Source: an uncultured Candidatus Saccharibacteria bacterium (GTDB lineage Bacteria > Patescibacteriota > Minisyncoccia > Phycocordibacterales > Zambryskibacteraceae). From it: 64,000 nucleotides of DNA. The DNA lies in NCBI GenBank assembly GCA_964446535.1, contig CAYUOR010000001.1, positions 71,283 through 135,282 of the forward strand. The letters are read 5' to 3'. The notes beneath the pieces were generated by a model. That model was not told the DNA's origin. It saw nothing but the letters and a program-made list of their open reading frames with translations, and did no database searches. Below, piece by piece: positions 46,259-64,000 of this stretch. Every line of letters starts with the position of its first letter. Position 1 is the stretch's first letter. Made by a program: the position numbers and the translations under genes.

Positions 46259-48577
46259 CTAACCTCCTATCTCGTCTAGAAATGAAGTGTCCCCTTCTCT
46301 TAGTGATTCAATAATGTTTTCTACGTCAGCGTTACCCGGATTAGTGCGTGTCAGAGATTCAAACTGCTCAAGTGCTTCTTCTAGACGTCCGAGTTGTGCC
46401 AAGGTAAGTCCTAGATAGTATTGCGCATTGGCATAGTCTGGAGTGATGCTGAGCGCCTGTCTAAAGGTCCTTTCGGCGCCGGCATAGTCACCCACGGAAT
46501 ATTTCAAAACTCCGAGTTCGAAATAGACACCGGGGTTATCTGGTGTAAGAAGCGAAAGCTGCTCTGCCGACTCTATCGCCCCCTTAGTATTACCAGCCTG
46601 TATTTCAAGTTGAGCAAGGAGAAGGTGGGCATCGGCATAGTCCTGCTTAAGAGCTATAGCACTTTTAACTTCCGAAATAGCCGAGTCCCTGTCGTCATTA
46701 TTAAGCTCAAGCTGAGCTCTAAAGAGGTGTATTTCTGGATTCAGGGGATTAAGTTTTTCCGCTTCATCATAAGCGAAGGAAGCGTTCTCATAGGCGCCGG
46801 AAACAGAGAGTGGGGGCGGCACAAGGGCGCTGTAAATTAAGCCGAGAGAAATCCAGTTTTGGTAGCCAGACGGATTGACTATGGTTGCCTGTCTTGCCGC
46901 TTCAATACTTTTACGCAGTGATTCTTCAAAAATCGCCTGGTTTTCCTCAGGAGTACCTTCGGTCGCATTTACCGCATTCTGAGCTTTGACGAAATTAATT
47001 CTTGATAGAGCTATATAGTAGGCATCGGTCGGTATTGAAGAAATTGATTTGTTTACCAGGCTCTCCACCTCCTCAAGTTGCGTCCCGGAAACATTGGCAA
47101 GATCAACCGCCTTTTTAAAGTGGAATGCGGCGGTGGTCCTTGTATAACTTGACCAGCCAAGATAGATAGTGCCAGCGAATACTGCAGCCATAAGTACAAG
47201 AGAGACCGCCTTGTTTCTCGGCATATCTTTAAGATTCAGTAGGCGAGAATTCAAAACATGAGAAACTTGGTTTGCGGCAAGAAGAAGGCCAGAGAAGATA
47301 AACGCGAAGACCAACACCGTGGCGGACGGAGCGTAAACAAAACTTGCTGTCCAAAGGAAAAGAACAATAAAGGCGATAGATATCGTGCTAAACCGTTCTG
47401 CCCTAGATTCCGTAAGACGCATTAGAGACTTTATGACCAAAACAAGCAGAGCAACAAAGAAAGCCAGCCACGCGACTGTGCCTAGGGCTCCCGTGGTAGG
47501 AATCTGAGTCGGCAAGAAGCCGACACCGAATGGGAAGCTAATCGCCCAGAATGGGGTGGTATTAATTTCGGCTGTCTTATAAATAAGCCAATCACGATCG
47601 AAGGTATTAGGCCCAGATCCAAGGAAACTTTTCTCAAGAAGAACCGCCTTCGAAACACCGAGGGTAGCTGAGAAAGAGGGTCTGACATCGACATTTTGAA
47701 CATTGAAGGTGTTGGCGACAACATCACCCAGGGCGCCACGTGAGTCGGAAATCGTCGGGTTTATAAGGAAAATAATGGAAACAATACCAAGAACAATGGG
47801 CAGAAATAGAGGTCTGGTAAAGAAGTTGCCGCCTTGTGGTTCGTTGTTTGCAAAGCGTTTTTCAAGTCTTGAGAAGTAGAGAATAAGCAGAGCGGAGGCG
47901 GCGAGCGTTAGAGCAAATGCGACCGAGAAATTGATCACAACCATAAGGAATAGCCCCAGGAGAAAGGCAACATAAACAAGAAGACGTGCCGAGAGCTTCA
48001 TGGGTAAGAGTCCGATAGTGAGAGCGGAAAACGAGACAAGCAGACCGAAGACGACAGCTAGATCGGTCCAGCTACCTATAGGATTTCCCATATTGCCGAA
48101 GAAGTTGCCGAAGACAAGAGCCTCGCCCCCAGAGATAATTTTTACGAAAACGAAGAGCGCTAGTACCGATATGGAGAGAAAGAAAGCCACAAGTGCTTGA
48201 AGAATCCTTGAGGTATCAGCGTAAATAATGCTGAAAAGAACTACCAGAAGAGCTCCGATAAGAATGTAACCGAAAGTGCCGACTTCAAAATTGTATCCTA
48301 GAAGTGATAATGAAGACGGGGTGGAAATAAAAGCAGAAACAAAATATACAATCGGAAGAAATAGAACCAGAGCCACAATAGGATGCCAGGGAAAATTTAT
48401 TCTACCTTCGCGCCAGGTGCCAAAGAGAAACAAAATAAGCGCTACAACCGTGCCGAGGACAAGTAGTGCTGATTTGGCGGCACCGAGACCCAGAGCCGAA
48501 CCGGGAACAAAAAATAATGGTAAGAGAAAAATAAAACCAAGAGTTACAAAGAGAGCTGACTTATTTGTCTGAAGCAT
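46259..48577 (-). CDS. O-antigen ligase (Wzy_C)-like polytopic membrane protein with C-terminal TPR repeats
   Basis: ~12 TM N-terminal half, large loop, C-terminal ~5 TPR units ('YFELGVLKYSVGDYAGAERTFRQALSITPDYANAQYYLGLTLAQLGRLEEALEQF'). Confidence 0.55.
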   Translation of the reverse strand: MLQTNKSALFVTLGFIFLLPLFFVPGSALGLGAAKSALLVLGTVVALILFLFGTWREGRINFPWHPIVALVLFLPIVYFVSAFISTPSSLSLLGYNFEVGTFGYILIGALLVVLFSIIYADTSRILQALVAFFLSISVLALFVFVKIISGGEALVFGNFFGNMGNPIGSWTDLAVVFGLLVSFSALTIGLLPMKLSARLLVYVAFLLGLFLMVVINFSVAFALTLAASALLILYFSRLEKRFANNEPQGGNFFTRPLFLPIVLGIVSIIFLINPTISDSRGALGDVVANTFNVQNVDVRPSFSATLGVSKAVLLEKSFLGSGPNTFDRDWLIYKTAEINTTPFWAISFPFGVGFLPTQIPTTGALGTVAWLAFFVALLVLVIKSLMRLTESRAERFSTISIAFIVLFLWTASFVYAPSATVLVFAFIFSGLLLAANQVSHVLNSRLLNLKDMPRNKAVSLVLMAAVFAGTIYLGWSSYTRTTAAFHFKKAVDLANVSGTQLEEVESLVNKSISSIPTDAYYIALSRINFVKAQNAVNATEGTPEENQAIFEESLRKSIEAARQATIVNPSGYQNWISLGLIYSALVPPPLSVSGAYENASFAYDEAEKLNPLNPEIHLFRAQLELNNDDRDSAISEVKSAIALKQDYADAHLLLAQLEIQAGNTKGAIESAEQLSLLTPDNPGVYFELGVLKYSVGDYAGAERTFRQALSITPDYANAQYYLGLTLAQLGRLEEALEQFESLTRTNPGNADVENIIESLREGDTSFLDEIGG

Positions 48578-49101: not shown

Positions 49102-52100
49102 CTACTGACCTGTTGAGTAAGCCGATCTCGACTTCGGTCCGAAGTAACCGCTTGAAGGCAAGATTGCCTTAGCTCTCTGCCACCTGATTACGGCGGACTG
49201 AGTTGCGGGACCGAAATAAGTACTCTCATTCCCTACCGAGCCAAGACCGGAGGACGAAACGGTAAAGCCCTGGGAGTTAAGATACTTCTGGAGACAGCGC
49301 ACATCCTCACCGGATGAACCGAGAGTTAGGTCTCTAGTAAAGGAACACGTTCCTGAAGGCAGGCCGGCCCCCTGAGAGATGAGAAAATTTATGAGGGTCT
49401 GAAGCTCTAAGATTTTGGCTGTGAGGATTGAGATCTGCTGGGCTTCAGGGAGCGAGTTGAAGTTTGAAGGTAAAACACCAATAGATGACGGGATAGAAAC
49501 TGGGCTACCGCCTCCACCACCGCCACGTCCTCCACCGCCCGAAGAGACTGGCGGATCTTGAGGCGTTGGAATCGGCGTTGGCGGGTTAATAGATTCTGGG
49601 GCGGTGAAGCTTACCGTGGCCGGATCAGAATAGTTTTCCTGATCGTCGTAGACAAAGAGTGAGTAGTAATAGACTGTTCCGGGAGTAACAGAAGTATCGG
49701 TAAAGCTAGAGCCAGTGACTCGAGCTACTTCAAAATTCGCATCGTATTGATTGAGGTAGCCGGTGGTGGAGCGCAAGATTGCCACACCAGAGTAGCCTGT
49801 GAAAGATATTGGACTCCAGTTTAGGATGATAGAGCCAGGTGAGGCTGTGACTAGGTTGATTCTTGGTGGCCGACTTCTTACGGTGAAGGTGGTGTTATTG
49901 GAAAGCCCAGTAAGGTTGTTGGCGACTGATCTTGCTCTGGCATTGTAGCTACCAGAATTAAAGCCAGAAACAACAACCTCATGAGAAGTTCTTAAGATGG
50001 TGCTCACAGCCGACTGGGTCCCATAAGCAGTGGTTGCGCCGTATTCAACTTGAGATGTTGCCGGTCTATCCGTGTTCCACCTGAATCTTGCTTCTCCTTG
50101 TCTAACTTGAACCGAGAAATTTGAAACAGTCGGCGCTGCAGTAATCGGCGGTGCGGACGCCACCGTGACAGAGGTACTTGTATTAGAATTTCCCCCACTT
50201 CCCGTGCAGGTAAGGGTGTATGTGGTGTTTGCGGTTGGTGTTACCGACTGCGTTCCGCTTGTGCTCTTCGTACCACTCCAGCCGTTTGATGCTGTGCAAC
50301 TCGTGGCATTTGTTGAACTCCAGGTGAGAGTGCTTGAATTGCCAGAAGTGACTGACGTCGGGTTAGCCGAAAGAGAAACGGTTGGGGCGGGGGTTGGTGA
50401 TGGTGGCGGAGGCGAGGTCTGACCGCCAGAATTGTTGTATGTTGGTAAGGCTGATTCAGAGGTCGCCATGGCGAAATCATCCATATACATCCATGTGTCC
50501 CTATTACGATAGAGACGGCTGTCCACGAACTCGCCCCAGGTTGTGGGCATTCTAAGAATTCTGTGTCCTCTAGACACCTGCTCAGGTGGTAGTATCCAAT
50601 TAAAGTTCGGTGTAACACCGTGGATCCATTCGGCAACCTTAACCCAATCCTGTCCGAGTGGTCGTATCCACGCCTCATACTTCCCTGTGCCGTCAGAGGT
50701 GTCCATATGGAGCTTAACAAGTTGCCAGCGGTTCGGGGTAATAAATTCATTTCTATTTTGCTGATACAGTTTCCATTGATCCCAATCGGGTTCGGTCAAT
50801 ATATCCGCGCCAGTACCAAGATTTTTCATAAAGGCGCTACCAGTATCGTAACTTTCAGGAGCAGGATTATCTAAGACAAAGAGCCAGTTGTGGTATTGGC
50901 CGGTACCCGGGCACGGATAAGACCTATTGCACGGATAGATAAATTTGCCACCAGTAAAACCGCTATTCTGAAATTGATTCTTGTTAATGTATACCCAGAA
51001 CTGGAACCAAACGTTGCTAGGAATATAGTTTTCAAATTCCGTACCATCTCCTCCCATCTGAAGATAGAAATCAGTTTGGCCATTCAGGGTTGCTGATAAG
51101 CCTTCTATTGCGAGAGCGCGCGAACCGCCACTTGGAAATGGGCTAGTTGTTCCGGGAATATTTGTAACGGTGTATAGGTAACCACCAGCACCTCCAGGCC
51201 TTGTTGTTTCGTCTTTAAGTCCGGTCCAACCAGCTGATGTAAAAGCGGAAGCTTTCGTCGCTCCAGAATCAAATTTTCCTACTGGATACTCAAAGTTATC
51301 AAATAAGAGGAGACCTGATGGTGTTGGTGCGGGCGGTGTTGGTGCGGGCGGTGTTGGTGCGGGCGGTGTTGGTGTCGGCACGGTCGTCACCGTAATAGAA
51401 GTATTAGCGCTGGCACTCCCTCCACTTCCCGTGCAGGTAAGGATGTATGTGGTGTTGGTGGTGGGCGTTACCGACTGCGTTCCGCTTGTGCTCTTCGTGC
51501 CGCTCCAGCCGTTTGATGCTGTGCAACTCGTGGCGTTCGTTGAACTCCAGGTGAGGGTGCTTGAACCGCCTTGAGTAATTGAAGTTGGATTGGCCGAAAG
51601 AGAGACGGTTGGGGCTGGTGTCGGCGATGGAGGTGGTGGCGGTGCTGGGTCGGTATAGGGGTTGAGGAAGTCATCTGCAACCCAGCCGTCAAAAGAGGTA
51701 TCAAAGTTAATTCCCCACCACCAGTAATTTGTGCCAGAGAGAGATGCGTAAGTGGGTCCGCCGGTAACAGTACCAGTCGCACCAGAGGGTTGTGTACCGA
51801 GCGAGGTACCGGCTGCTGTTGAGCGGACATTCACCGTTGCGTTCGTCTGAATACGACTACCAGTAGTAAAGCGCGTTGGCGGCACAATTTGTGTTGGCGG
51901 AGGAGGTGGAGGTAGTGGCGTAGAGCCGTATGTCGGCAGGGCTGATTCTGAAGTCGCCATGGCGAAATCGTCCATGTAGAGCCAAGCATCGTAGTTCGTA
52001 TTATCAGAGAAGTTGGCTGTGCCCCAAGTGGATGGCATTCTCAAAACTCTATGCCCGCCCTCAGAACCACTGGGAATGTCCCAGACGAAGCCGGGTGTAA

Positions 52101-55100
52101 CTCCGCCAATCCATTCGGCAACCTTTGTCCAAGAACCTCCCATAGGTCGAAGCCACATTTCCCAAGAGTTACCAGAGGTTCTCGTGGTGTTGAAATGCAT
52201 TTTCACCAAGGTCCAGCGGTTTTCCCTCGGCCACTCGGAAAGAGTTTGTTGTCCGATGTTGCCGGTAGAATACGGATCGTAATTTGGTCCAGTGTATTCA
52301 ATGTTACTTAACCCTGCCGATTCAGTGAGACCAAAAAGCACATCACCTTGTGAAGGGTTGCCAAACGGCCACGGATCCATAAGCGGACGGTCAGCACGTG
52401 CCGCTGAGTGGGCAATCCAGAGATGGCTGTGACAGCCGTAGCTTCCGTTGCATGGATAAAGGAATTTGTTGCGTGCAGCAAATCTTGAAAGTTGGCTTCC
52501 ATAATATTGTGGATATACCCAGAATTGGAACCAAACGTCACCTGGGATGTAGTCGTCGTAAGCCGCAGAGGCACCACCACCGAGTTGTAGATAGAAATCA
52601 GTCTGATTCCTGTAAGTACCAGGACCTCCGGAGAAGTCGCCCATGGTCGTTGGCAGACCTTCCATAAGTAGTGCCCGTGAGCCAGTCCCAGGAAATGCGC
52701 CCGTGTATCCAGGGATGCTTGTAACTGTCGAAAGGTAACCCGATGCACCGCCGGGTCTGGTTGTCTCGTCTTTAAGATCTGTCCAGCCAGCCGATGTAAA
52801 CGCAGAAGCTTTGGTAGCGGCGGAATCAAACTTACTAACTGGATACTCAAAGTTATCAAAGAAGATAAGTCCGGAAGGTGTTGGTGTCGTAGTATTAGAA
52901 ACCGTTACGGAAACTATAGGAGAGGTGGCCAAGTTCCCTGCTGCATCTCTCGCCACTGCCGTAAGATTGTGCGTACCATTTGTGGCGGAGGTGGTGTTCC
53001 ACACAATAGAGTATGGTGCCGTGGTGTCCTCTGCTCCGAGATTTGCTCCGTCTAGTCTAAACTGGACGCCTACTACTCCCGTGTTATCCGAAGCGTTGGC
53101 AGAGACTGTGACGGAAGAACCAGAAACCGTTGAGCCACTAGAAGGCGTACTAATAGAGACCGTTGGAGGAGTTGTGTCCGAGGGGGAAGGCGGTGCTGAC
53201 GATGCGGGTGGTATATCTGTCGGCCAACCAGGAGTAATACGAAGTCTGTCGAGTGCGACATACATCTGGCTAAGAGACGAGCCGAGAGCCGAGCCGCCGA
53301 CCATATCATCCCAGTAACCAAACAGGGGTGAGAATAGACCGTAGAAACCGTAACCAGGATAAGGATTCAATCCCTGACTTTCACAACCACGGGCAGCCCT
53401 TGATACATTCGTAGCACCCTCGGGTCTGTAATAAATAGAGATGCATCTGTCAGCTGGGTTTGAAGACCTCATATCAACAACAAATGCCATCCAAACCCAC
53501 TGATCCGCATACGGTCTCCAGTCCTGACTATCTACGACATCTGGTCCAGCCCCACCAGCAAGAATCGTCCAGCGTGGTGGATTTTCTCCGAAGTGTATTC
53601 CATTTCTGTTTCCTTCTGCTCCTGTGCTAGTTCGATATTTAAAGTCTAAGGTTTTATTTCTGTGAGCCCAGAAACCGCCACTTGTATTGTCTATCGCGTT
53701 AAGAAGAGTGGCGGGCATTTTTAGCATAAAGGAGAAGACGGTAAAGTTATGATTGCCACCGGCAAACGGCGCTGTCTCAACGGGTGCCCAACCAGCGCTG
53801 TCTTCGTTGTCGGTGCACGTCGCACAGGGTTCTGGAATTGCGCGCCAACCGCCGGACGGACCGTAACCGTAATTTGCGCCCCACTCCATCCTTACAAGTC
53901 CGGGTTGAGACAAAACGTCTGACGCAACCTGCGTTTCATAATCTCTTGAATATAGAACGGTGCTCGTCTCTGGCAGACCGTCAGGGTTATTGGCGGTACC
54001 GACACTTGGCGGTGGGGGTGGCGGTGGAGGAGGTGCGGATGAATTGGAGACATTTACCACGATATTGGCCGAGGTTACAGTGTTACCTGAAGTGTCTCTA
54101 GCAATAGCGGTGATGGTGTGGAAGCCATTAGAAACGCTTGTGGTATTCCAGCTTATAGAATACGGTGATGTGGTATCTTCTGGACCTATGGATACCGTAT
54201 CAACCCTAAACTCAACACCAGCAACGCCAACATTGTCTGAAGCGTTGGCTGTAATACTCGTTGTACCAGAAACGGTAGCGCTACTTGCTGGTGAGGTGAT
54301 AGAGACACTCGGTGGTGTTGTATCAGATGGTGGAGGAGGCGAAGAAGGTGGTGGTGTAGAGCCGCCACGCGCAGAGATGGCTCTTAGTTTGAAATAGTCA
54401 TGCTGTCCATCAAAAGTTGAAATAGAGGCACGACCGGCGATAGCGCCGTTGTCGTTAGTTAAGCCGGCGATCCTTGTCGCACTTGAGTCGGTGAAAGTTA
54501 TCTGCGGACTCGAGTCGTTTCCAATCCAGCCGGGGTCGCCGGGTTTCGTCGGACCGTGGTCAACTACCCAGATGTTAAGTGTGACATTCCCGCCGACCCC
54601 ACCCGATGCTGCCAAACGCATTGTATAAAAATTTCCGCCAGTAAAGGTAACTGGTATAGCGAAGGATTGAACGTTGGTGCGCGCTCCGTTGTTATATCGT
54701 TGAATGATTACTCCCCCGTTTTCAATAGTCATACCGTAACCGTTATCGACGCCAGCGTTGTCCCACCTGACACCGGGACCAACGAGACGTGTCGAGGTAT
54801 TTGCGCGCGCCGTCACCTGTGCCTCATGATCAATGCTTCCCGGAGAACTCGTGTAGCGGATTGCTACATCGTTGTCGTCAACAATATCGAGATCAAAGTT
54901 TACCGAGTCCCAGGTCGCACCCTTTATTTCGTTAACCCAGCGACCGGCGTATGGATTGGTATTAAAGTTGTCAGAATATTCGGCAACTTGCGCGAAGCTT
55001 GTGTCAGCATCAAAGCGCGCCAGACTGACAGAGAGCCACATCAAAGTAAAGGAAGCGAAAAGGAAAAGAGCCCAGTGGTAGTGAGAGTGGTACTCGTGCT

Positions 55101-55161
55101 TATGCCAGTCGGCATAAGCTGGTGAGGATTCCAAGAGCTGTTGATGCAATTTCGTCGTCAA
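49102..55161 (-). CDS. Giant cell-surface protein (2019 aa): N-terminal TM anchor, Ig-like domains, two ~380-aa duplicated modules, PT-rich linkers, two FN3-like domains, Gly-rich spacer, C-terminal PG_binding_1 domain
   Basis: N-terminal 'HYHWALFLFASFTLMWLSVSLA'; 'DTTPPSVSITSPASSATVSGTTSITANASDNVGVAGVEFRVD' Ig-like, twice; duplicated modules beginning 'TPSGLIFFDNFEYPVSKFDSAATKASAFTSAGW' and 'TPSGLLLFDNFEYPVGKFDSGATKASAFTSAGW'; '(PAPTP)n'; 'SSGGGGRGGGGGGSP'; C-terminal 'VRCLQKYLNSQGFTVSSSGLGSVGNESTYFGPATQSAVIRWQ'. Confidence 0.6.
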   Translation of the reverse strand: MTTKLHQQLLESSPAYADWHKHEYHSHYHWALFLFASFTLMWLSVSLARFDADTSFAQVAEYSDNFNTNPYAGRWVNEIKGATWDSVNFDLDIVDDNDVAIRYTSSPGSIDHEAQVTARANTSTRLVGPGVRWDNAGVDNGYGMTIENGGVIIQRYNNGARTNVQSFAIPVTFTGGNFYTMRLAASGGVGGNVTLNIWVVDHGPTKPGDPGWIGNDSSPQITFTDSSATRIAGLTNDNGAIAGRASISTFDGQHDYFKLRAISARGGSTPPPSSPPPPSDTTPPSVSITSPASSATVSGTTSITANASDNVGVAGVEFRVDTVSIGPEDTTSPYSISWNTTSVSNGFHTITAIARDTSGNTVTSANIVVNVSNSSAPPPPPPPPPSVGTANNPDGLPETSTVLYSRDYETQVASDVLSQPGLVRMEWGANYGYGPSGGWRAIPEPCATCTDNEDSAGWAPVETAPFAGGNHNFTVFSFMLKMPATLLNAIDNTSGGFWAHRNKTLDFKYRTSTGAEGNRNGIHFGENPPRWTILAGGAGPDVVDSQDWRPYADQWVWMAFVVDMRSSNPADRCISIYYRPEGATNVSRAARGCESQGLNPYPGYGFYGLFSPLFGYWDDMVGGSALGSSLSQMYVALDRLRITPGWPTDIPPASSAPPSPSDTTPPTVSISTPSSGSTVSGSSVTVSANASDNTGVVGVQFRLDGANLGAEDTTAPYSIVWNTTSATNGTHNLTAVARDAAGNLATSPIVSVTVSNTTTPTPSGLIFFDNFEYPVSKFDSAATKASAFTSAGWTDLKDETTRPGGASGYLSTVTSIPGYTGAFPGTGSRALLMEGLPTTMGDFSGGPGTYRNQTDFYLQLGGGASAAYDDYIPGDVWFQFWVYPQYYGSQLSRFAARNKFLYPCNGSYGCHSHLWIAHSAARADRPLMDPWPFGNPSQGDVLFGLTESAGLSNIEYTGPNYDPYSTGNIGQQTLSEWPRENRWTLVKMHFNTTRTSGNSWEMWLRPMGGSWTKVAEWIGGVTPGFVWDIPSGSEGGHRVLRMPSTWGTANFSDNTNYDAWLYMDDFAMATSESALPTYGSTPLPPPPPPTQIVPPTRFTTGSRIQTNATVNVRSTAAGTSLGTQPSGATGTVTGGPTYASLSGTNYWWWGINFDTSFDGWVADDFLNPYTDPAPPPPPSPTPAPTVSLSANPTSITQGGSSTLTWSSTNATSCTASNGWSGTKSTSGTQSVTPTTNTTYILTCTGSGGSASANTSITVTTVPTPTPPAPTPPAPTPPAPTPSGLLLFDNFEYPVGKFDSGATKASAFTSAGWTGLKDETTRPGGAGGYLYTVTNIPGTTSPFPSGGSRALAIEGLSATLNGQTDFYLQMGGDGTEFENYIPSNVWFQFWVYINKNQFQNSGFTGGKFIYPCNRSYPCPGTGQYHNWLFVLDNPAPESYDTGSAFMKNLGTGADILTEPDWDQWKLYQQNRNEFITPNRWQLVKLHMDTSDGTGKYEAWIRPLGQDWVKVAEWIHGVTPNFNWILPPEQVSRGHRILRMPTTWGEFVDSRLYRNRDTWMYMDDFAMATSESALPTYNNSGGQTSPPPPSPTPAPTVSLSANPTSVTSGNSSTLTWSSTNATSCTASNGWSGTKSTSGTQSVTPTANTTYTLTCTGSGGNSNTSTSVTVASAPPITAAPTVSNFSVQVRQGEARFRWNTDRPATSQVEYGATTAYGTQSAVSTILRTSHEVVVSGFNSGSYNARARSVANNLTGLSNNTTFTVRSRPPRINLVTASPGSIILNWSPISFTGYSGVAILRSTTGYLNQYDANFEVARVTGSSFTDTSVTPGTVYYYSLFVYDDQENYSDPATVSFTAPESINPPTPIPTPQDPPVSSGGGGRGGGGGGSPVSIPSSIGVLPSNFNSLPEAQQISILTAKILELQTLINFLISQGAGLPSGTCSFTRDLTLGSSGEDVRCLQKYLNSQGFTVSSSGLGSVGNESTYFGPATQSAVIRWQRAKAILPSSGYFGPKSRSAYSTGQ

Positions 55162-55465: not shown

Positions 55466-56320
55466 TTACCTAAAATTCACTCCCCCTCTAACACTTGTAC
55501 CGCCTCTTATTTTTACTGGCGGGATAGAGGCGCCTCCCTCATATTCCGTCCAGCTCGTGATATTCATTTTGTTCTCTAGGGGCTCACTGTAGTCAGAAGC
55601 AATAAATATATTGTCCAAGTGGTGGTCAAATGTACCGCCAGCACCTAAAGAATCTCCAATTCGCAACACATCCAAACCCTGCGGTTGGTCAAAGTTCGTG
55701 GTTAGGTTCTCAAAGGCATGTCGCAGTGAACCGTTGTCATTATAAACTTCTATACGCATATCGCTATTCGGCTCGTCCCACCTAGCGACGAGAAAATACC
55801 AGGTATTCGTCTGTAGATCAGCATCCGTTGTAGTTATAGAAACATTACTGACACCCGCTCGACGCACTCTAAGCGTAATTTCTCTCCCAGTTGCATCGTC
55901 AGTTCCGGCGGAAAAAATAGCAATATTGTTTGCTGCCTGACCAGTTTGTTGCGCCAAAAAGTGAAAATGGCTGACGTTCCAAGTTACATATCTAAACCAG
56001 AAACCTATGGCGCCCTCAACGTTGCTTATAATGTCATTACTGCTTACCGCAAACTCGGCATAGGAGTCATTGCTGGCTGAGTCAAGACCGTTGGTACCAA
56101 TTTTAACCGCATCGGTATTCAGGGCGGCACTAGCATTAAGTGTTGCCGTGGTATCTCCGGCGGAGAAGTCGTGTGTGCCGTCAAGTGTCGTCCCCTCTGC
56201 CCGCCAGAAAAATGTAACACTATTTACCGCCTCTACTCTGTTGAAATACGCGACGCCGAGAAGGAGTAGGGCTAGAGCAATGCCAGAAAATAAAAGCCAG
56301 TTTGTTTTATAAGTCTTCAT
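55466..56320 (-). CDS. Secreted ConA-like lectin/glucanase (LamG-like) domain protein
   Basis: signal/TM 'WLLFSGIALALLLLGVAYF'; beta-rich 'GAIGFWFRYVTW ... WYFLVARWDEPNSDMRIEVYNDNG' as in LamG jelly-roll. Confidence 0.45.
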   Translation of the reverse strand: MKTYKTNWLLFSGIALALLLLGVAYFNRVEAVNSVTFFWRAEGTTLDGTHDFSAGDTTATLNASAALNTDAVKIGTNGLDSASNDSYAEFAVSSNDIISNVEGAIGFWFRYVTWNVSHFHFLAQQTGQAANNIAIFSAGTDDATGREITLRVRRAGVSNVSITTTDADLQTNTWYFLVARWDEPNSDMRIEVYNDNGSLRHAFENLTTNFDQPQGLDVLRIGDSLGAGGTFDHHLDNIFIASDYSEPLENKMNITSWTEYEGGASIPPVKIRGGTSVRGGVNFR

Positions 56321-56323
56321 TTT

Positions 56324-56881
56324 TTACAGGAATCGCCATGTCTCTATTATATCCGATAGCCAGTTTTCAAGGCTTTTGGTTGTACTAACTTCGTAAAGTA
56401 GCCCTCGGTGGATAAACCAAATTTCCCAGGTCTCGCCCAGTCTCTCACTCTGGCCGTAGAAGGATGTGGCCGGCGCGCTGTCGATTTCAAGATCTTTTGG
56501 GCTATTCATCACACCTAGCGGAGAATCTTTCAGGAATCTTTCCTCCGTAATTTTTTCCTCGCCATACGGGACAACAAATATCTGGAAACCGGCTCCCGCC
56601 TCTTTATCTTCAAAGGTTATGGTGCTCGCTCCCCCGCCCTCGTCATACTGGGTAATCGTTAATCCTTCCTTGTGTAGCAGAGAGAATCCATGAAGCTCGT
56701 TTCTATACTCTTTCCAGCCTGCCGGAATTATTCGGACACCTGTTTTTTTAAATTCAAGCTCCTGGAGAAGGCCTGCTTTACTTTCACTTCTCTCGTGCGA
56801 AAGAAGAAAAAAAGCGGCAAGAGCTAGTGCCGAAAGTCCAATAACAACAGCGATAATTTTTAATTTCCCTTTTAAATTCAT
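56324..56881 (-). CDS. Hypothetical membrane-anchored protein
   Basis: 185 aa; N-terminal TM 'IIAVVIGLSALALAAFFLL'; no recognised motif. Confidence 0.3.
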   Translation of the reverse strand: MNLKGKLKIIAVVIGLSALALAAFFLLSHERSESKAGLLQELEFKKTGVRIIPAGWKEYRNELHGFSLLHKEGLTITQYDEGGGASTITFEDKEAGAGFQIFVVPYGEEKITEERFLKDSPLGVMNSPKDLEIDSAPATSFYGQSERLGETWEIWFIHRGLLYEVSTTKSLENWLSDIIETWRFL

Positions 56882-56882
56882 C

Positions 56883-59486
56883 TCATTGTTGATTCAGAAT
56901 TGCACGACCATTTAGAAAAAGAAGATTCCCGAACAAGCGAGTGTTACGCTGGCTTGTTGAATTCCCTGTGGTAAAGCTTTTTATAGTACCGACACCTGTA
57001 CCAGCGCCGTTTGTAACATAAGCGCGGTAGAAATAAGTTTGGTCTGAAGAAAGTCCAGTTATGTAGCTTGTAAAGGCGTGATTGCCTAGAAGGGCACCTA
57101 GGGTCGTAGTTGAAACCCCTGTTACTAGCGCCGAGTCGGTAGAGTAAGCGAAGCCGTGCTCCGTGCCGTCTGAACCGCCAGTTTTTACCCCGTGAAGCGT
57201 CGCGGAGTTAAAGCCAGGTGTGGCAAAGTTTGTAGTGACAGTAGGAAGAACAGTTGACTCCTCCTGCGCACTGATAGTGTAGAAGGTGGATGTTGAGTTT
57301 TGGTTGTTGTAGCCGGTTAGTATCCAGTCGGCGCTACGAGCGCTATTTGAAATCCTTACTTCATCAATAATGCCGTCAAAAAATATTGAAGAGCCATTGG
57401 AGCGAAAACCTTGTCCAAACAACAGGTTGTTGCCATTGGTTGCGAAAGACTTAAGCGTTGATGTAGCAACAGAGGAAGACGCCATCATCTGTCCATTGAC
57501 GAAAAATGTCATCCAAGTGCCGTCGTGAGTTACCACCACGTGCTCAAAGGTTCCGGCGCTCGTCGTTGTAGAAAAGGTCGCCGGCTTACCCGTCCAGTCG
57601 AAGACATAGCCGTTGGCCAATTGAATTAGTTCATACGCTTGGAGTTTTGAGACAAAAGGATGGGCGGGAAGCGAAGATGAGCTCGTGTAAAAGGCGGTTC
57701 TCGTCGTATCGTGAGCAAAAGCTGAATAATAGAGCGTTTTGCCATCAGACTCTATTGATGGGTCAGCCGTGTCGGCGGAAGCGCCGGTACCATTAGGGTA
57801 GTGCTGTGTAGAAGTAGCGTTAATCCAACCCCCGGTTGGTACGGAACCTTCAGCGGTGGAAGAAGCCAAGCGATAAACCATATTCGCAGCAATACCGCTA
57901 TTGCCATAAAATACGCGGTAGCGCATTCCACCCACTAAGGCTGCGTCAACGTTTGACCAATTCGTAGCGCCTCCGCCGTCAGGATCGCCCGCACCTGCCC
58001 AGGTTGTTACAGTCTGGCCTTGAAGGGGATAAATTTTTGCCGATTCGGCAATTTCGGTAGTGCCGTTAACACAGACTGACGTGTAGTATAGCGCAAACCC
58101 GCTCGTATCCACGGAGAGACTGCATCCTTCAGACGCACCCGAGCCGTTTGGTTGGTCGCCAGGATCAATCCAGCCGGTCCAACCACTGCCGTCAGTCTTA
58201 ATTCTTGCGATAAAAAAGTTTTCTGTTGTGCCGTTGGCCATAGTGGTACCAAGGTATACATGATCACCGGTTATCGTGATGTCTATTGGAGAATTTTCGG
58301 CAGAACCGGCACCAGCGGGCGCGGCACCCGGCTGAATCCAGGCGCTGAAATTTGTTAAAGATAGCGTAGAGGTGGCGTAGGAAAATTGTTCCACGGCGTC
58401 CGTTGCATTGCCGTTGTGAGCCATTACCGCATACCAAATGTAGGAATCATCAGAGTCAACTCCTATTGAAAATCCGCCGTTGTTGCCACAAGTGGCCATA
58501 CCCGTGACGGAGCGACTGGTCCAGACGGAGAATTGTAAGCCATCAAGTGTTGATGTGGCAGTATAGAATCTCGCAGTTCCATCAGAACACAAGGCGGCTC
58601 CATAATAGATCAGTTCTCCAACAATGACTGAATCTATTTCGCTATAGTCTGCTGTTCCTGCTGTTCCAAGGGTGGACGTGGCGATACGGTTCCAAGTTGG
58701 GTTTGGGATGGTTGCCGCCGAAGTATCGTCTGTCTGAATCCAGGCTTCTATTGTTCCTGCGGTTGTTAAATCCAAATCATTATGGTCAGTCACGGTTGAA
58801 ACATCATTCGTGCCGTCAAAGTCGTAGGCGGTGGCAATTTTGCCAACGGCACCAGCGGTTGCTCCTGAAACAGTGCCATTTTGAGCGGTACCGGCCGAAT
58901 CGCTGTTCGATGAGCCCGAGTCGTCCATATGCCAGACGCCAACATAATTTGAATCCCAAGTTCCGGATACGTTTTCTTGAGAACTTGTCACGGATGAGTT
59001 GCCATAGAACATATAAACGACTGTGTTGTCGTCAAAGTCTAGAGTCGGGATCTCAACCCAAGCAGTAATCTCGCCTGTCGTCGGAGTATATCTTTCTCGT
59101 TCGTAATCAAGCGGTGTTGAGCCCGCTGCATCGGAGGTAAAAATTATATCGTCGCCCTGAGCGTCGGTTACATTTCCACCATTAGCCGTTGTACGAAATT
59201 CGGGTTCAGTAAAAGACATTAATACGGGAAAATTAGTTAAGTTAGAGGTGCCTGTCACTTGCGACTCTTGAATAGTAATAGTTCTCCGATACGAATAACC
59301 ATTTGCGAACTGGGCTTCGGCTTTGTTAACTTCTACTCCTAAACTCATTTTCGACCCAGTGCCTTCGTTAGAAATATTTATAATCGGAACTAGGGGTGTA
59401 AAAAACCACGCTAAAATTAAAAAGGCGGTAAAAAATTTTATTGGAAATCTAATCCGTCTATCTTTTGTTAATTTTAAAAAATTCAT
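56883..59486 (-). CDS. DUF2341 + LamG-domain large surface protein (paralog A, 867 aa)
   Basis: N-terminal TM; DUF2341-like 'YSYRRTITIQESQVTGTSNLTNFPVLMSF ... DIIFTSDAAGSTPLDYERERYTPTTGEITAWVEIPTLDFDDNTVVYMFYGN'; LamG-like 'GVWHMDDSGSSNSDSAGTAQNGTVSGATAGAVGKIATAYDFDGTNDV'; second LamG-like and FN3-like C-terminus. Confidence 0.6.
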   Translation of the reverse strand: MNFLKLTKDRRIRFPIKFFTAFLILAWFFTPLVPIINISNEGTGSKMSLGVEVNKAEAQFANGYSYRRTITIQESQVTGTSNLTNFPVLMSFTEPEFRTTANGGNVTDAQGDDIIFTSDAAGSTPLDYERERYTPTTGEITAWVEIPTLDFDDNTVVYMFYGNSSVTSSQENVSGTWDSNYVGVWHMDDSGSSNSDSAGTAQNGTVSGATAGAVGKIATAYDFDGTNDVSTVTDHNDLDLTTAGTIEAWIQTDDTSAATIPNPTWNRIATSTLGTAGTADYSEIDSVIVGELIYYGAALCSDGTARFYTATSTLDGLQFSVWTSRSVTGMATCGNNGGFSIGVDSDDSYIWYAVMAHNGNATDAVEQFSYATSTLSLTNFSAWIQPGAAPAGAGSAENSPIDITITGDHVYLGTTMANGTTENFFIARIKTDGSGWTGWIDPGDQPNGSGASEGCSLSVDTSGFALYYTSVCVNGTTEIAESAKIYPLQGQTVTTWAGAGDPDGGGATNWSNVDAALVGGMRYRVFYGNSGIAANMVYRLASSTAEGSVPTGGWINATSTQHYPNGTGASADTADPSIESDGKTLYYSAFAHDTTRTAFYTSSSSLPAHPFVSKLQAYELIQLANGYVFDWTGKPATFSTTTSAGTFEHVVVTHDGTWMTFFVNGQMMASSSVATSTLKSFATNGNNLLFGQGFRSNGSSIFFDGIIDEVRISNSARSADWILTGYNNQNSTSTFYTISAQEESTVLPTVTTNFATPGFNSATLHGVKTGGSDGTEHGFAYSTDSALVTGVSTTTLGALLGNHAFTSYITGLSSDQTYFYRAYVTNGAGTGVGTIKSFTTGNSTSQRNTRLFGNLLFLNGRAILNQQ

Positions 59487-59498
59487 TCTGTGTGAAAA

Positions 59499-62042
59499 TC
59501 ATTGTTGATGGACTATCGCCCTCCCGTTCAAAAATTTCATCGTACCGAAGAGCCGGATATTGCGTGAGACATTAGAATTCCCTGTGGTAAAACTATTTAT
59601 AGTACCGAAGCCCGTGCCGGCGCCGTTTGTAACATATGCTCTATAGTAATAAACCTGGCTGGGTGAAAGACCAGTAATGTAGTTAGAAAAAGCATGATTG
59701 CCCAAGAGAGCACCCAGAGTGGTTGTCGAAACACCGCTTGAGAGGGTGGCGTTGGTTGAATAGGCGAAACCGTGTTCCGTGCCGTCAGTGCCACCGGTTT
59801 TTACGCCATGAAGATTAGCAGAATCAAACCCGGGGGTCGCGAAGTTTGTGGTTACTGTTGGCAAAACATCGTTCTCTTCTTGGGCGCTGATGGTGTAAAA
59901 TGTGGATGTTGAGTTCTGGTTGTTATAGCCAGTTTGTATCCAGGGTATACTTTGTGTACTACTTGAAACACGGATCTCGTCTAGAATTCCATTAAAAAAT
60001 ATCGTTGAACCATTAGCTCGGTGGCCTTGGCCAAACAGAAGATCATTGGCATTTGTGGCAAAATCAGTTGTAACCGTTGTGCTTGAATATTCCTGACCAT
60101 TGATAAAGTAGCGCATAACTGAACCACTGTGTGTAACCGCTACGTGATAGAACGTACTGGCGGCTGTTGTTGAGCCAAACGTCGTTGGTTTCCCAGCCCA
60201 GTCAAACACATATCCTGGACCAGTCTGAATCAGTTCATAAGCATTGCGTTTAGAAACAAATGGGTGGGCTGGGAGTGTAGTAGATGAGACCTGAAATAAT
60301 TCAGTTGCAGTGTTGTGTGCATATGCGCCGTAGTAAATATTTTTACCGTCAGATTCTACCGAAGGAACAGACGACTCCACCGCACCGGCACCATCGGGAA
60401 GACTCGGAGCAGAACTTGAGGACACAATCCATGAACTGACTGACCCACCTTGGGGTGACGAAGAAGCAATGACCCAGTTTTCGTCAACTGATTCGTGTCC
60501 ATAAAATGCGTGGTAACTAAAACCTCCGACAATAGTAGAATCCACTTGATTAAATTCAGTATCACCAGCAACTCCTGCCGCTGGGTCAGTATCATTTTGC
60601 CAACCGCTAAACCCAGTCCCGTCAAAGTTTGACCACGCCCTACCGTATGTAGAGGTTGTACCGCTGTGACAGTGGCCAGAATAATAAAGCTTTGCTCCAT
60701 CAGTATCTATGCCCACTGAACAACTTTCACCGGTTCCACCTGTCATGTTTGTAGTGGATTGGGATGTCCAACCAGTCCAGCCGCTTCCGTCTAATTGAAC
60801 GCTTCCGGTTCGAAATGCTTCAGTTGTTCCATTCAAAAGCAATACTGCAAAATAGGCTCTTTCACCAGAGACAACAATATCTATACTTGATCCTTCGGCC
60901 GCGCCAGCAAGAGTTGTAAGGTTGTTTAGAGATTTCCATGAAGCAAGTGCCCAGCCTGTGTAATCTAATGTGGAAGTTGCATAAGCTATACGAGTATTCG
61001 TTCCAGCGTCGGAAGACATTACAACGTGCCATATGTAAACTCCGTCAGAATCTACGCCGATATCACAGCCACCGGTATTGGCTGGAGTTCCAGTGGCCGT
61101 TCTTGAAGTCCATGCTGATAAGTCGCCGGTACCTAATGGTCTAGTGGCGGTTCGAAAGGTTGCCACAGTATCCGCGCACAGTAAGCCCGCAAAATATTCT
61201 GTCTCACCGATTATGACACTATCCACTCCACTCCAATCGGACGCACCAGCTCCGTCGGGTGCATTTTGGCTGACCCAAAGAGTACTAAAAGATGGAGCTG
61301 TTGAGACATCGTCTGTTCTCACCCACGCCTCAAATGTTGCTGTATTAGTGTAGTCGAGAATAGCCGCATCTGTTACAGTTGAAACATCGTTTATGCCATC
61401 AAAATCGTAAGCGGGTCCAATTTTTCCAACCGCGCCAGCAGTTGCCCCTGAAACCGTTCCGTTGTTGGCAGTACCGGCTGAATCAACGTTTGTTGAACCA
61501 GAATCATCCATATGCCAAACTCCGTCATAAGTGGTGTCCCAAGTTCCCGCTACGTTTTCTTGCGAACTCGTCACTGAGGAGTTGCCATAGAACATATAGA
61601 CAACAGTGTTGTCGTCAAAGTCTAGAGTCGGTATTTCCACCCAAGCAATAATCTCACCGGTAGTTGGCGTATACCTTTCACGCTCGAAGTCCAGCAAAGT
61701 TGTGCCTTGTGAGTTTAGCGAAAAGATTATGTCATCCCCTTGGGCATCTGTAACATTGCCGCCGTTTCCAGTTGTTCGGAGCTCCGGTTCTGTAAATGAC
61801 ATTAGAACCGGAAAGTTTGTTAAGTTTGAACCGCCAGTAACTTGTGATTCCTGGATCGTGATGGTTCTTCTGTAGGAATAACCGCTTGAAAATTGAGCTT
61901 CGGCTTTACTGACCTCTATACCCAGTTTTATTTTCTCTCCTTCTTCTGTTTGGGTAACCCGTAGAACTGGCACAACAGGAGAAAGCACCCAGATAAATAT
62001 CAAGGTTATCGCTAATATTTTTTTAAAAATCTTTACATTCAC
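59499..62042 (-). CDS. DUF2341 + LamG-domain large surface protein (paralog B, 847 aa)
   Basis: same architecture as paralog A, near-identical N- and C-terminal ~200 aa, divergent central region. Confidence 0.6.
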   Translation of the reverse strand: MNVKIFKKILAITLIFIWVLSPVVPVLRVTQTEEGEKIKLGIEVSKAEAQFSSGYSYRRTITIQESQVTGGSNLTNFPVLMSFTEPELRTTGNGGNVTDAQGDDIIFSLNSQGTTLLDFERERYTPTTGEIIAWVEIPTLDFDDNTVVYMFYGNSSVTSSQENVAGTWDTTYDGVWHMDDSGSTNVDSAGTANNGTVSGATAGAVGKIGPAYDFDGINDVSTVTDAAILDYTNTATFEAWVRTDDVSTAPSFSTLWVSQNAPDGAGASDWSGVDSVIIGETEYFAGLLCADTVATFRTATRPLGTGDLSAWTSRTATGTPANTGGCDIGVDSDGVYIWHVVMSSDAGTNTRIAYATSTLDYTGWALASWKSLNNLTTLAGAAEGSSIDIVVSGERAYFAVLLLNGTTEAFRTGSVQLDGSGWTGWTSQSTTNMTGGTGESCSVGIDTDGAKLYYSGHCHSGTTSTYGRAWSNFDGTGFSGWQNDTDPAAGVAGDTEFNQVDSTIVGGFSYHAFYGHESVDENWVIASSSPQGGSVSSWIVSSSSAPSLPDGAGAVESSVPSVESDGKNIYYGAYAHNTATELFQVSSTTLPAHPFVSKRNAYELIQTGPGYVFDWAGKPTTFGSTTAASTFYHVAVTHSGSVMRYFINGQEYSSTTVTTDFATNANDLLFGQGHRANGSTIFFNGILDEIRVSSSTQSIPWIQTGYNNQNSTSTFYTISAQEENDVLPTVTTNFATPGFDSANLHGVKTGGTDGTEHGFAYSTNATLSSGVSTTTLGALLGNHAFSNYITGLSPSQVYYYRAYVTNGAGTGFGTINSFTTGNSNVSRNIRLFGTMKFLNGRAIVHQQ

Positions 62043-63016
62043 GAATTATTTGCAGTTGAGAAAAATTGGTAACTCATATTAGATATCGCACGCATAATAC
62101 TCGCTGCTTTTTCGAAAGCAGTTTTTTCTTCTACCTCACCTTTTATTTCAACCATAACGGTTATGAGATACGGTCTGTTTGGAATATAGACCACCCCGGA
62201 GTCGCTGTATGTGTTATTGCTAGAACCAGCACCGAACTTATGCGGAAACGAGACATCGCTTGGTACAACTCCTCGCATAAAATCTTTAAATTCTGCCCCA
62301 TCAAGTAACTCCAGAAGATATTGCGAATTTTCCCTATTAAGATAGTTGGCCGTGTAGAGAGAGCGGAAAAGGCGCGAATATTCTTTGGTTGTAACTGTTC
62401 CATTTTCGTCAAAAAGTTTTTCCAGACCTATCGCCTCAACTACGTTATCAATTTCAGAAGTGGGTATGTTGCGTAGCAATATTCTGTAGGCAGTGTTATC
62501 AGAGCGAACCAATAGTTCTTCCAAAAGTTTCTTTATTGTAAATTTTGTGCCTATAGGTTGAGTATGCAGTGTTGATGACACCGGATAAATATCTTCTTCT
62601 TCAAGAGTGAGTACTTGATCTGGTGACCAAATATCATGTTCTATCGCGCCCATAGTAGCCATGGCTATTGGAATTTTCGATAAACTAGAAGGTATAAATC
62701 GATCTTCGGGCAACAGATTTATATTCGCACCAGTATTTAAGTACTCTATATAAATTGAAATACGCGCATTTGGCTCGGTTGCTACAAGCTCTCGAAGTTT
62801 AGTGCGTAACGGCTGGAGAGTCGGGAGAAAATGCTCTTTGTCTATTAAATGTCGTGATATGTCTATAAGCGGATACTTCTCTCGCGCCTCACGTATTGAC
62901 ATGCCTTCGCCTTCATAAATATATGAGTGATACGAAACACCAAGTAGCGCTATAAGCAATGCTAGACTTGCATATTTCCACTTTTTGTTTTCGGTTTGTA
63001 TTTCTTTCTCTCTCAT
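62039..63016 (-). CDS. Class A beta-lactamase-like serine hydrolase, membrane-anchored
   Basis: N-terminal TM; 'SSLSK' (SxxK), 'RSDNTAYRILL' (SDN loop), 'HKFGAGSS' (K[TS]G-like) in class-A order. Confidence 0.45.
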   Translation of the reverse strand: MREKEIQTENKKWKYASLALLIALLGVSYHSYIYEGEGMSIREAREKYPLIDISRHLIDKEHFLPTLQPLRTKLRELVATEPNARISIYIEYLNTGANINLLPEDRFIPSSLSKIPIAMATMGAIEHDIWSPDQVLTLEEEDIYPVSSTLHTQPIGTKFTIKKLLEELLVRSDNTAYRILLRNIPTSEIDNVVEAIGLEKLFDENGTVTTKEYSRLFRSLYTANYLNRENSQYLLELLDGAEFKDFMRGVVPSDVSFPHKFGAGSSNNTYSDSGVVYIPNRPYLITVMVEIKGEVEEKTAFEKAASIMRAISNMSYQFFSTANNS

Positions 63017-63018
63017 AA

Positions 63019-64000
63019 TTATGTGGTCGGCTCACCTGAACCAGATGCTGTTTCGCCTCCCCCATTTTCGGCTGGGGGTTCAGGAGCTGGAGCTGGTTCG
63101 GGTTCAGGGACTGGTTCGGGTGCCGGCTCTTCAGCGGGTGGTTCTTCGGCTGGCGGCTCTTCAGCGGGTGGTTCTTCGGCTGGTGGCTCTTCACTTGGCG
63201 GTTCTTCTGCAGGGGGTTCCTCAACGGGTGGTTCTTCAGCCGGTGGTTCTTCTGTTGGTGGAGTTTGACCGCCGACAAGTTGGAGAAGTGCCGAGAGCTG
63301 GTCTCTGTTTATACAGACGTCTTCTATACATACTTGTTTGGTGTAGACAATCTCCGAGCTGATAGCTTTGGCAAAGAAGTTTTCTATACCATTGGTGGCA
63401 TCAGCAAACCAGGTCTTTAATCGACCAAAGAGTCCCGTGAAGAAACTGTCGGCAAAGGCGCGCGAAGCATCAGTTGAGCTCGCGGTTGTGGAGGCGATGG
63501 TGGCGAGGTTAAGGTCAAGCTCTTGAAGCCCCTTAACTGTAAGCGAGAGAATCGCCGTTGAGTTTATGGTTTGTACCGAACCATCTTTATTAAAGTAAGA
63601 GAGGTGCGGACTGGTAGAAGCTGTTTCTTCTGCAATGAAGCCCCAATGGTCAAGCGTAGTGGTGCTTAGATCATCGTTATATCTGAAGGAGACGGGGCGG
63701 AGAGTTCTAACAAGGTCTAGTCCAGTATCAGGTAGCGACTCAATAGAGTTCTTGAATCTCGCAGAAGAGGCGTTGCAGGTATCTCCCGACTGCGTTGTAA
63801 TTTCTAAAGTGGTGCCGTCTATACAGATAGAATTATCTGCGCCAGTCACAGAGGAGAGGCCGTTTATCGCCATCGTGCCGTTTATGGAAAGCGTTCGCCA
63901 CGGCGTGGTTGAACTAATACCTGTCAGGAGCGAGGAGCCCTTTGTTATTGTGAGAGCAACTTGTGAGGAGAAGTTGGTTGAAGAAGCGATGTTGAAGGAC
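63019..64000 (-). CDS. Tail-fibre-like surface protein, N-terminus beyond window; S74-type intramolecular chaperone domain followed by (PPAEE)n tail
   Basis: frame stays open upstream of Met at 63873 to the window edge; 'SSARFKNSIESLPDTGLDLVRTLRPVSFRYNDD ... HWGFIAEE' matches the chaperone domain 'SDRRLKENI...LRPVSF.W...GFIAQE'; C-terminal 'PPTEEPPAEEPPVEEPPAEEPP...'. Confidence 0.45.
   Translation of the reverse strand, partial: SFNIASSTNFSSQVALTITKGSSLLTGISSTTPWRTLSINGTMAINGLSSVTGADNSICIDGTTLEITTQSGDTCNASSARFKNSIESLPDTGLDLVRTLRPVSFRYNDDLSTTTLDHWGFIAEETASTSPHLSYFNKDGSVQTINSTAILSLTVKGLQELDLNLATIASTTASSTDASRAFADSFFTGLFGRLKTWFADATNGIENFFAKAISSEIVYTKQVCIEDVCINRDQLSALLQLVGGQTPPTEEPPAEEPPVEEPPAEEPPSEEPPAEEPPAEEPPAEEPPAEEPAPEPVPEPEPAPAPEPPAENGGGETASGSGEPTT
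63050..63260. repeat. Tandem 15/30-nt repeats encoding the (PPAEE)n tail
   Basis: ggtggttcttcggctggcggctcttcagcg unit repeated ~7 times; produces spurious ORFs in other frames. Confidence 0.7.

Follow-up and report, generated by a model that had tools for sequence, protein, structure and literature searches.

A giant, putatively wall-tethered surface protein of a Minisyncoccia bacterium with duplicated jelly-roll modules of an unnamed family

Bacteria of the candidate phyla radiation (CPR) are thought to live attached to other cells, and to our knowledge the molecules that mediate this contact are almost all uncharacterised. Jelly-roll polysaccharide lyases (PL) rely on a catalytic set made up of a Lys or His and a Tyr, together with a Gln or Arg that acts as neutraliser. 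The lyases of family PL36 presumably use a Lys/Tyr catalytic pair, which the K143A/Y185A mutant in the title of entry 6KCV fits. For two further groups of jelly-roll proteins the published results are negative, enzymatic activity not being detectable in X122 domains and lyase activity not being significant in Cip1 (PMC10916295). Here we describe a gene at 49102..55161 on the minus strand of a 64,000-nucleotide stretch of contig CAYUOR010000001.1 (the whole of which is called the window below), whose 2019 amino acid (aa) product contains a pair of jelly-roll modules that resemble these proteins in predicted fold.

The reading that we favour, with a probability of about 45%, is that the product is an exported, peptidoglycan-tethered, multi-domain surface protein of the Minisyncoccia whose modules bind and probably cleave polysaccharide. 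An N-terminal hydrophobic segment is predicted to direct Sec export and a C-terminal PG_binding_1 domain to hold the protein non-covalently on the cell wall, with Big_7, immunoglobulin (Ig)-like and FN3 domains and Pro/Thr-rich linkers as probable spacers. The working parts would be at least three jelly rolls, namely modules A and B, which seem to be anciently duplicated, and a sequence-unrelated domain, here called X. The modules may bind a bacterial polysaccharide, probably an acidic one, via an aromatic and polar face made up of W119, Q121, W123, W225 and W245 together with K141 and Y144 (numbered in the modelled 321-aa segment, aa 759-1079; K141 and Y144 are K899 and Y902 of the protein). 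They may also cleave it, most likely by beta-elimination as the PL14, PL36 and PL20 lyases do, and the target could be the organism's own glycocalyx or the envelope or matrix of a neighbour or host. Catalysis is favoured because lyases lead the structural ranking, a Lys and a Tyr are invariant, close relatives lie in exopolysaccharide (EPS) operons, and the module is fused elsewhere to domains of the carbohydrate-binding module (CBM) type. What the analysis shows is the layout of the domains, their duplication, the predicted fold, how the family is distributed and that synteny is conserved; glycan binding, catalysis, substrate and target are inferred.

An earlier note on this DNA had proposed a giant protein of 2019 aa at this position, with two internally duplicated modules of about 380 aa and 60-70% identity. 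The open reading frame (ORF) exists and the duplication is far beyond chance: self-comparison aligns residues 763-1078 with 1282-1575 (BLASTP E 5e-87) and the Ig-like units, residues 1181-1270 and 1590-1678, with each other at 80-81% amino acid identity (E 3e-31). The figures for the modules were too high, since they are 51% identical over 324 columns with gaps counted and 58% identical at aligned positions with gaps excluded. The jelly rolls themselves measure 318 aa in module A (aa 761-1078, 51928..52881; all features of the protein are on the minus strand and residue numbers are those of the 2019-aa ORF) and 296 aa in its paralogue, module B (aa 1280-1575, 50437..51324), and module B reaches about 390 aa only if its linker and Ig unit are included. 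The motifs that had been quoted were located, TPSGL[IL][FL]FDNFEYPV at 761 and 1280, YMDDFAMATSESALPTY at 1078 and 1575 and SLSANPTS... at 1187 and 1596, and at least 70% of the family retain the Cys pair of YPCNxSYxC. An Ig unit had been said to follow each module; this holds for module B, while after module A about 100 aa with a weak SH3_3-like match intervene.

The duplications differ in age. Third-codon-position identity between modules A and B is about 40%, near saturation, and this duplication is therefore old; in the Ig-like units, which share 82% of their nucleotides, it is 67-79%, so that their duplication is recent, unit 2 being a copy of unit 1, and unit 2 is missing from one orthologue (L010, described below). 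The two Big_7 domains (279-379 against 661-762) are likewise paralogous, with 59% identity (E 3e-27). Duplication had also been expected at the DNA level; similarity of this kind is present, and it is confined to the Ig units (83% over 261 nt) and the N-termini of the modules (77% over 196 nt). Recent gene conversion was considered for these highly similar N-termini and rejected, as third-position identity there is only 40-50%. The modules diverge most at residues 937-969 (17% identity) and through two indels of about 10 aa; divergence is thus concentrated in loops, and therefore modules A and B probably differ in specificity. Module duplication is recurrent in the family, since a metagenomic protein of 1095 aa (P0129) holds an independent tandem pair, in the order signal peptide, two modules, Glucodextran_B/PKD-like domains and F5/8-type-C domain.

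The AlphaFold model of module A, based on a 66-sequence alignment, is an almost all-beta jelly roll with a predicted local distance difference test score (pLDDT) of 93.9 and a predicted template modelling score (pTM) of 0.92. When it was compared by Foldseek with the PDB, the matches ranked in the order PL14 5gmt (E 3e-7), PL36 6kcw/6kcv, X122 8q2a/8q28 (Teredinibacter domains), PL20 2zzj, PL14 3a0n (vAL-1) and glycoside hydrolase (GH) family GH131 4le4; the 5gmt, 6kcw and 6kcv matches span E 3e-7 to 4e-6, and legume lectins and neurotoxin Hc domains rank below the lyases. A search of BFVD returned only unnamed or generic ConA-like viral proteins. Domain X (aa 388-655, 53197..54000) belongs to a rare family, with 8 homologues, and is predicted to be a third beta-jelly roll (pLDDT 77.9). 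Its top Foldseek match is likewise PL14 5gmt (template modelling score, TM, 0.50) and, having been obtained independently, is counted for the lyase-like reading. Both models, built almost wholly of beta strands, are two-sheet beta-sandwich jelly rolls of the Concanavalin A-like lectin/glucanase fold class, to which all of their structural matches belong. Comparison of the module profile by hhalign with domain X, as a single sequence or a 9-sequence profile, and with the N-terminal domain of the protein (N-domain) revealed no relation, and therefore the three are not detectable paralogues. The proposal in the earlier note of a carbohydrate-active or lyase-like beta fold without a named family agrees with the predicted structure (AlphaFold pLDDT 94; Foldseek matches to PL14, PL36, PL20 and X122).

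In the closer alignment of the family 25 positions are invariant, all of which are retained in modules A and B. In a divergent set of 60 sequences with 32-57% identity, D11, F13, P115, K141, Y144, W245 and L317 are still invariant, and Y15, K39, Q95, D97, W119, Q121, W123, W225, Y304 and D307 are at least 90% conserved. The residues W119/Q121/W123/Y125 and W225/L227/K229/H231 alternate with hydrophobic residues on predicted strands, and each set would therefore lie on one exposed sheet face. An invariant Lys and Tyr with a conserved Gln is the kind of residue set that jelly-roll lyases use, and these residues may play the corresponding part in the modules.

A search of a 5.8-billion-protein collection with module A yielded 279 homologues at E up to 1e-3, nearly all of them unnamed proteins of 320-390 aa without a Pfam domain. 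A hidden Markov model (HMM) search of 1.84 billion cluster representatives (50% identity) gave 329 at E 1e-3, of which 293 and 225 remain at cut-offs of 1e-10 and 1e-30; the family is small and sharply bounded, without a fringe of weak matches that leads over to a larger one. Its range covers more than 12 bacterial phyla and one DPANN archaeon, chiefly as stand-alone secreted proteins of about 350 aa, which are enzyme-sized and carry signal peptides or lipoprotein signals. The 55 family loci in species-representative genomes come from Acidobacteriota, Bdellovibrionota, Nitrospirota, Gammaproteobacteria (including Ca. Thiodiazotropha), Myxococcota, Planctomycetota, Verrucomicrobiota, Bacteroidota, Desulfobacterota, Binatia and Minisyncoccia and, among archaea, one member of the Woesearchaeota. 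The suggestion that such a protein is typical of episymbionts thus does not extend to the module, which for the most part forms secreted proteins by itself and does so in Acidobacteriota, Nitrospirota, Gammaproteobacteria, Planctomycetota and Myxococcota, among other groups. Where it is part of a longer protein its partners are F5/8-type-C, PKD, Big_7, Glucodextran_B and weak beta-helix domains; all of these except Big_7 were counted for the favoured reading, as accessory modules typical of carbohydrate-active enzymes. Ig-like units of the same 'LTWSSTNATSCTASG.WSG' kind as in the window also stand before the module in three metagenomic proteins, P0060, P0067 and P0108, of which P0060 is assigned to the Myxococcota in one source.

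The archaeal member is a 1431-aa protein at 7923-12218 of locus L035, in the complete genome of a Ca. Woesearchaeota archaeon (CP060218.1), with a module at 37% identity and the order signal peptide, module, FN3 and Pur_ac_phosph_N repeats and C-terminal transmembrane anchor. Here, in an ultra-small organism, a giant surface protein has acquired the module a second time, apparently independently. A relation of domain X to a region of about 250 aa in the same archaeal protein, with which it shares an 'NEDxAG' motif, was considered and is unsupported (hhalign E 0.015, probability 3%).

The modules, domain X and the N-domain gave no Pfam match, whether the whole protein, eight pieces of it or 66 family members were searched, and the module family gave no NCBIfam match. 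Neither phmmer nor the 66-sequence profile found anything relevant at E up to 10 among all PDB chain sequences, including 5GMT, 3A0N and 6KCV. Modules A and B did not match PF14099 (Polysacc_lyase, the PL20 and heparin-lyase-I type) at E up to 10, and a faint match (E 0.01), counted for the lyase-like reading, was seen in only 1 of the 66 family members. Module A had no match in phage or plasmid collections (tblastn), and the literature search found no paper describing the family.

Genomic context was counted in two ways, from the collection's own gene calls for 9 stand-alone homologues and with 27 labelled EPS-cluster tblastn probes at the 55 species-representative loci. Six of the 9 homologues with proper gene calls are inside polysaccharide biosynthesis clusters and 3 are outside. 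Among the products of these clusters are exosortase EpsH/EpsI, Wzy_C and a number of glycosyltransferases, those of rml genes, UDP-glucose dehydrogenase and DegT, and also sulfotransferases, polysaccharide deacetylase and AsnB-like amidotransferases. In the probe census at least 3 EPS categories were present at 7 of 55 loci, from Acidobacteriota, Nitrospirota and Gammaproteobacteria. Linkage to EPS operons recurs across phyla, yet it concerns a minority of loci and is concentrated among the closest relatives of the window modules. In one EPS cluster, on a metagenomic contig (L064), a 943-aa protein at 4327-7158 with the order Laminin_G_3, Big_7, Laminin_G_3 lies directly upstream of a stand-alone module gene (P0068); the two proteins have the same domain types as the CPR locus.

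The remaining parts of the giant protein were mapped as follows. Counted from the TTG at 55161 the ORF has 2019 codons for amino acids, but this TTG is without an obvious ribosome-binding site ahead; the TTG at 55134 (codon 10, giving about 2010 aa) is the more likely start, because the initiator Met of the orthologue P0130 aligns with residue 10. The single N-terminal hydrophobic segment, aa 29-50 (55012..55077), is kept in P0130 and was assigned by hydropathy as a predicted Sec signal peptide or signal anchor, so that the transmembrane anchoring stated in the earlier note is one of two readings; SLA/RF and SFA/QV motifs are found downstream of it. The N-domain of about 215 aa (aa 55-270, 54352..54999) is 63% conserved in P0130 and belongs to no family, with zero matches in Pfam, NCBIfam or PDB sequences. 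Two copies of the Big_7 Ig domain (PF17957), at aa 279-379 (54025..54327) and aa 661-755 (52897..53181), flank domain X and jointly score 126.6 bits, which exceeds the gathering score. The SH3-like insert, aa 1095-1170 (51652..51879), follows module A in P0130 too and matches SH3_3 (PF08239) weakly, at 16.2 bits (E 0.012) against a cut-off of 27. Neither Ig-like unit 1 (aa 1187-1262, 51376..51603), of the 'LTWSSTNATSCTASNGWSG' type, nor its copy, unit 2 (aa 1596-1671, 50149..50376), is of a kind matched in Pfam or the PDB.

Two FN3-like domains, aa 1675-1860 (49582..50139), follow in a region conserved in L010 and P0130. The earlier note had named both; the second matches fibronectin-derived monobodies at E 1e-4 (the best Pfam FN3 match being only E 0.25), and the first is assigned by pattern alone. 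A Pro-rich linker, a Gly-rich spacer and a helix-like linker, read from the sequence at aa 1861-1945 (49327..49581), lead to the C-terminal PG_binding_1 domain (aa 1946-2019, 49105..49326), whose PF01471 match at aa 1950-2009 scores 38.4 bits against a cut-off of 23 (E 1.4e-9) and whose nearest PDB sequence is the PG-binding domain of 1lbu. The PT-rich linkers, Gly-rich spacer and terminal PG_binding_1 domain had been recognised correctly in that note. Absent from its account were domain X, the N-domain, the SH3-like insert and the variation of architecture among orthologues. No HMM match to Laminin_G_3 (PF13385) or DUF2341 (PF10102) was found in the giant protein, whereas neighbouring genes do match, and tblastn found no further copies of its domains elsewhere in the window.

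The locus is conserved in two other assemblies. The Minisyncoccia metagenome-assembled genome (MAG) that contains L010 encodes an orthologue, present there by its C-terminal part, which aligns with residues 1282-1579 and 1671-2015 at 83% identity; the order downstream is that of the window: a membrane/TPR protein (78%), MurJ (77%) and LepA (87%). P0130, a protein of 1342 aa from a Hainich groundwater assembly, has the domain order N-domain, Big_7, Big_7, module A, SH3-like, Big_7, two FN3, PG_binding_1, without domain X, module B and the 'LTWSS' Ig units. Its gene order is again that of the window: beta-lactamase-like, small ORF, LamG-like, giant, TPR-membrane, MurJ and LepA. The retention of the locus beside MurJ in these two CPR assemblies was counted for the favoured reading. 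The window, whose housekeeping genes are DnaE, GyrA, LeuRS, LepA and MurJ, belongs to a CPR (Minisyncoccia) chromosome by virtue of this synteny. Comparison of the orthologues indicates a conserved locus whose domain content has grown in the window lineage. The G+C content at third codon positions is 0.42-0.48 in the modules and 0.44-0.46 in the neighbours; given this match, a recent horizontal origin of the modules is unsupported.

Several of these results weigh against cleavage as part of the favoured reading. The resemblance of module A to known structures is at the level of fold only (TM 0.36-0.57, root mean square deviation 7-11 Å, 11-14% identity), and concanavalin-like jelly rolls generally tend to match the same set of structures. 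The Pfam, NCBIfam and PDB searches gave no sequence link to any PL or GH family, nor is the module family surrounded by weak matches that could lead to one. At 48 of the 55 loci polysaccharide-synthesis context is missing, 1 having a single category and 47 none. A Pfam census of the two nearest ORFs per side at 38 loci, which used crude ORF calling and the top 25 families only and is superseded by the probe census, was heterogeneous and without EPS enrichment. Lyase-like catalysis is only slightly more likely than a role purely as lectin or adhesin; the modules and domain X could be non-catalytic, and the protein a wall-tethered adhesin that binds host, neighbour or matrix glycans without cleaving them, which we regard as a tentative but serious alternative. 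The fold is common to legume lectins, clostridial neurotoxin Hc domains and sialidase CBMs, all of them represented in the structural matches too, and the structurally close X122 and Cip1 are the proteins without detectable enzymatic activity and without significant lyase activity, respectively (PMC10916295). LamG/DUF2341 proteins are encoded next to the giant gene, adhesins typically have a stalk-like build of Ig and FN3 domains such as is seen here, and the scarcity of polysaccharide-metabolism context at most loci also fits this role. On the other hand, lyases outrank lectins for both the module A and the domain X models, and Lys and Tyr are invariant, with Gln and Asp conserved, down to 32% identity. 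Furthermore, the module is elsewhere fused to recognised binding modules (such as F5/8-type-C and PKD), as catalytic domains usually are to a CBM, and the stand-alone secreted copies in EPS biosynthesis operons resemble processing enzymes.

Alternatively, the modules could be glycoside hydrolases or transglycosylases that act through conserved carboxylates on a neutral glycan, possibly the organism's own wall-associated polymer. GH131 (4le4), GH16-type glucanases and carrageenase are among the fold matches, D97 and D307 are at least 90% conserved, as are E76, E243 and D300 in the closer set, and the PG_binding_1 domain and MurJ neighbour suggest a wall-associated role. This is improbable nonetheless, for the hydrolase structures match less well than the lyases, no ExDxxE-type motif is visible in the module sequence, and E243 and E76 fall below 90% in the divergent alignment where K141 and Y144 stay invariant. 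Less probable again is a function unrelated to carbohydrates, either protein-protein recognition of the LamG/thrombospondin type or a part in the envelope that is structural only. The weaker fold matches do include thrombospondin, COMP, NEL and collagen NC4; but glycans are indicated by the Trp-rich conserved face, by the EPS clusters around the closest homologues and by the CBM-type partners. That the ORF is a chimera assembled from internal repeats, or a decaying gene, is hardly credible. Repeats are present and the A-Ig-B-Ig junctions are unique to the window, but with at most 83% identity over 261 nt they have diverged too far for an assembler to confuse them, the 6 kb frame is open and both modules retain all invariant residues. 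Both flanks and most internal junctions are moreover backed by orthologues: P0130 shows N-Big7 and Big7-A-SH3, and L010 shows B-FN3-PGB. The reading of a wall-tethered protein whose modules bind and probably cleave polysaccharide is accordingly the one that we retain.

The giant gene lies in a region that is a surface-protein island. Directly upstream of it, at 55466-62042 (minus strand), is a run of exported jelly-roll proteins, comprising a 284-aa ORF that is LamG-like by eye (its 279-aa counterpart in the related locus L063 has a weak Laminin_G_3 match) and two proteins of about 850 aa that carry DUF2341 and Laminin_G_3. Adjoining Peptidase_S74 and Beta-lactamase2-family genes are at 63019-63873 and 62039-63016 (both minus strand); the 284-aa Peptidase_S74 protein, of the endosialidase/tail-spike intramolecular chaperone type, has a Pro-rich, extensin-like tail, and a beta-lactamase-like gene is also upstream of the orthologue in L063. 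On the other side, at 46259-48577 (minus strand), is a 772-aa polytopic membrane protein with C-terminal TPR repeats. It adjoins the giant gene in the window, L010 and L063, and is followed by MurJ and LepA; its best NCBIfam match is a sub-threshold, partial one to the PEP-CTERM TPR protein PrsT, and the membrane part is without a family. Farther away, an exported 1072-aa protein with VWA and Bact_surface_Ig-like domains at 34854-38072 (minus strand) is unrelated to the giant protein. The segment 16000-20300 reaches a G+C content of 0.52 against a background of about 0.45 and contains two ORFs of about 350 aa (16653-17732 and 17841-18878) that match no Pfam family, and also a T4SS-pilin-domain protein (19698-20216, minus strand).

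With its wall-tethered array of lyase-like domains, the giant protein would be a concrete candidate for mediating the contact of CPR bacteria with other cells. About 330 clusters make up the compact family that the module defines; it spans phyla and is missing from Pfam, NCBIfam and the PDB, and its closest members are in exopolysaccharide operons. If it is catalytic, it would provide a new CAZy family and a tool for degrading bacterial EPS and biofilm; if it is a lectin only, the protein would be an ordinary case of the large repetitive surface proteins frequent in CPR genomes. In a more far-reaching and, we think, unlikely version, the module would found a new family of lyases or hydrolases for acidic EPS, acting as a trimming enzyme of EPS clusters in free-living bacteria, and CPR and DPANN organisms would independently have mounted diverged copies on giant anchored proteins that cut the glycocalyx of a host or neighbour.

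Compared with described systems, the module is closest in predicted fold to the PL14 alginate and glucuronan lyases (AkAly30, 5GMT; Chlorella virus vAL-1, 3A0N/3GNE), which are also secreted beta-jelly rolls and among which 5GMT heads the Foldseek ranking of module A and domain X alike. It differs from them in being about 70-90 aa longer and in the low similarity (11-14% identity, TM 0.36-0.52, no sequence or profile match); catalytic equivalence is putative. PL36 Aly36B (6KCW/6KCV) shares the jelly-roll fold and takes ranks 3-5 in the PDB search; here too the relation is one of fold only (TM 0.35-0.53) with none in sequence, and the Lys/Tyr likeness is one of residue type. PL20 TrGL (2ZZJ), Cip1 and X122 (8Q2A, 8Q28) resemble it as jelly rolls whose concave face bears a conserved patch, again with no sequence relation to the module. 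X122 resembles the module in being an orphan domain of large multi-domain extracellular proteins (PMC10916295), although the proteins that carry it are redox- and CBM-containing ones of a wood-degrading symbiont.

The giant protein shares its terminal PG_binding_1 domain with wall-bound proteins such as the Streptomyces Zn DD-peptidase (1LBU) and endolysins, but the domains attached to it here are not recognisable as peptidoglycan hydrolases. Like the LamG (Laminin_G_3)/DUF2341 surface proteins of CPR bacteria, for example those encoded at 56883-62042, it is large and exported and combines concanavalin-like jelly rolls with Ig/FN3 spacers; its modules and domain X differ from theirs in having lyases as structural neighbours and no match to those HMMs. 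In architecture the protein is of a known kind, that of the giant repetitive surface proteins of CPR genomes, and what the module family and domain X add to it are unnamed sequence families within a known fold class.

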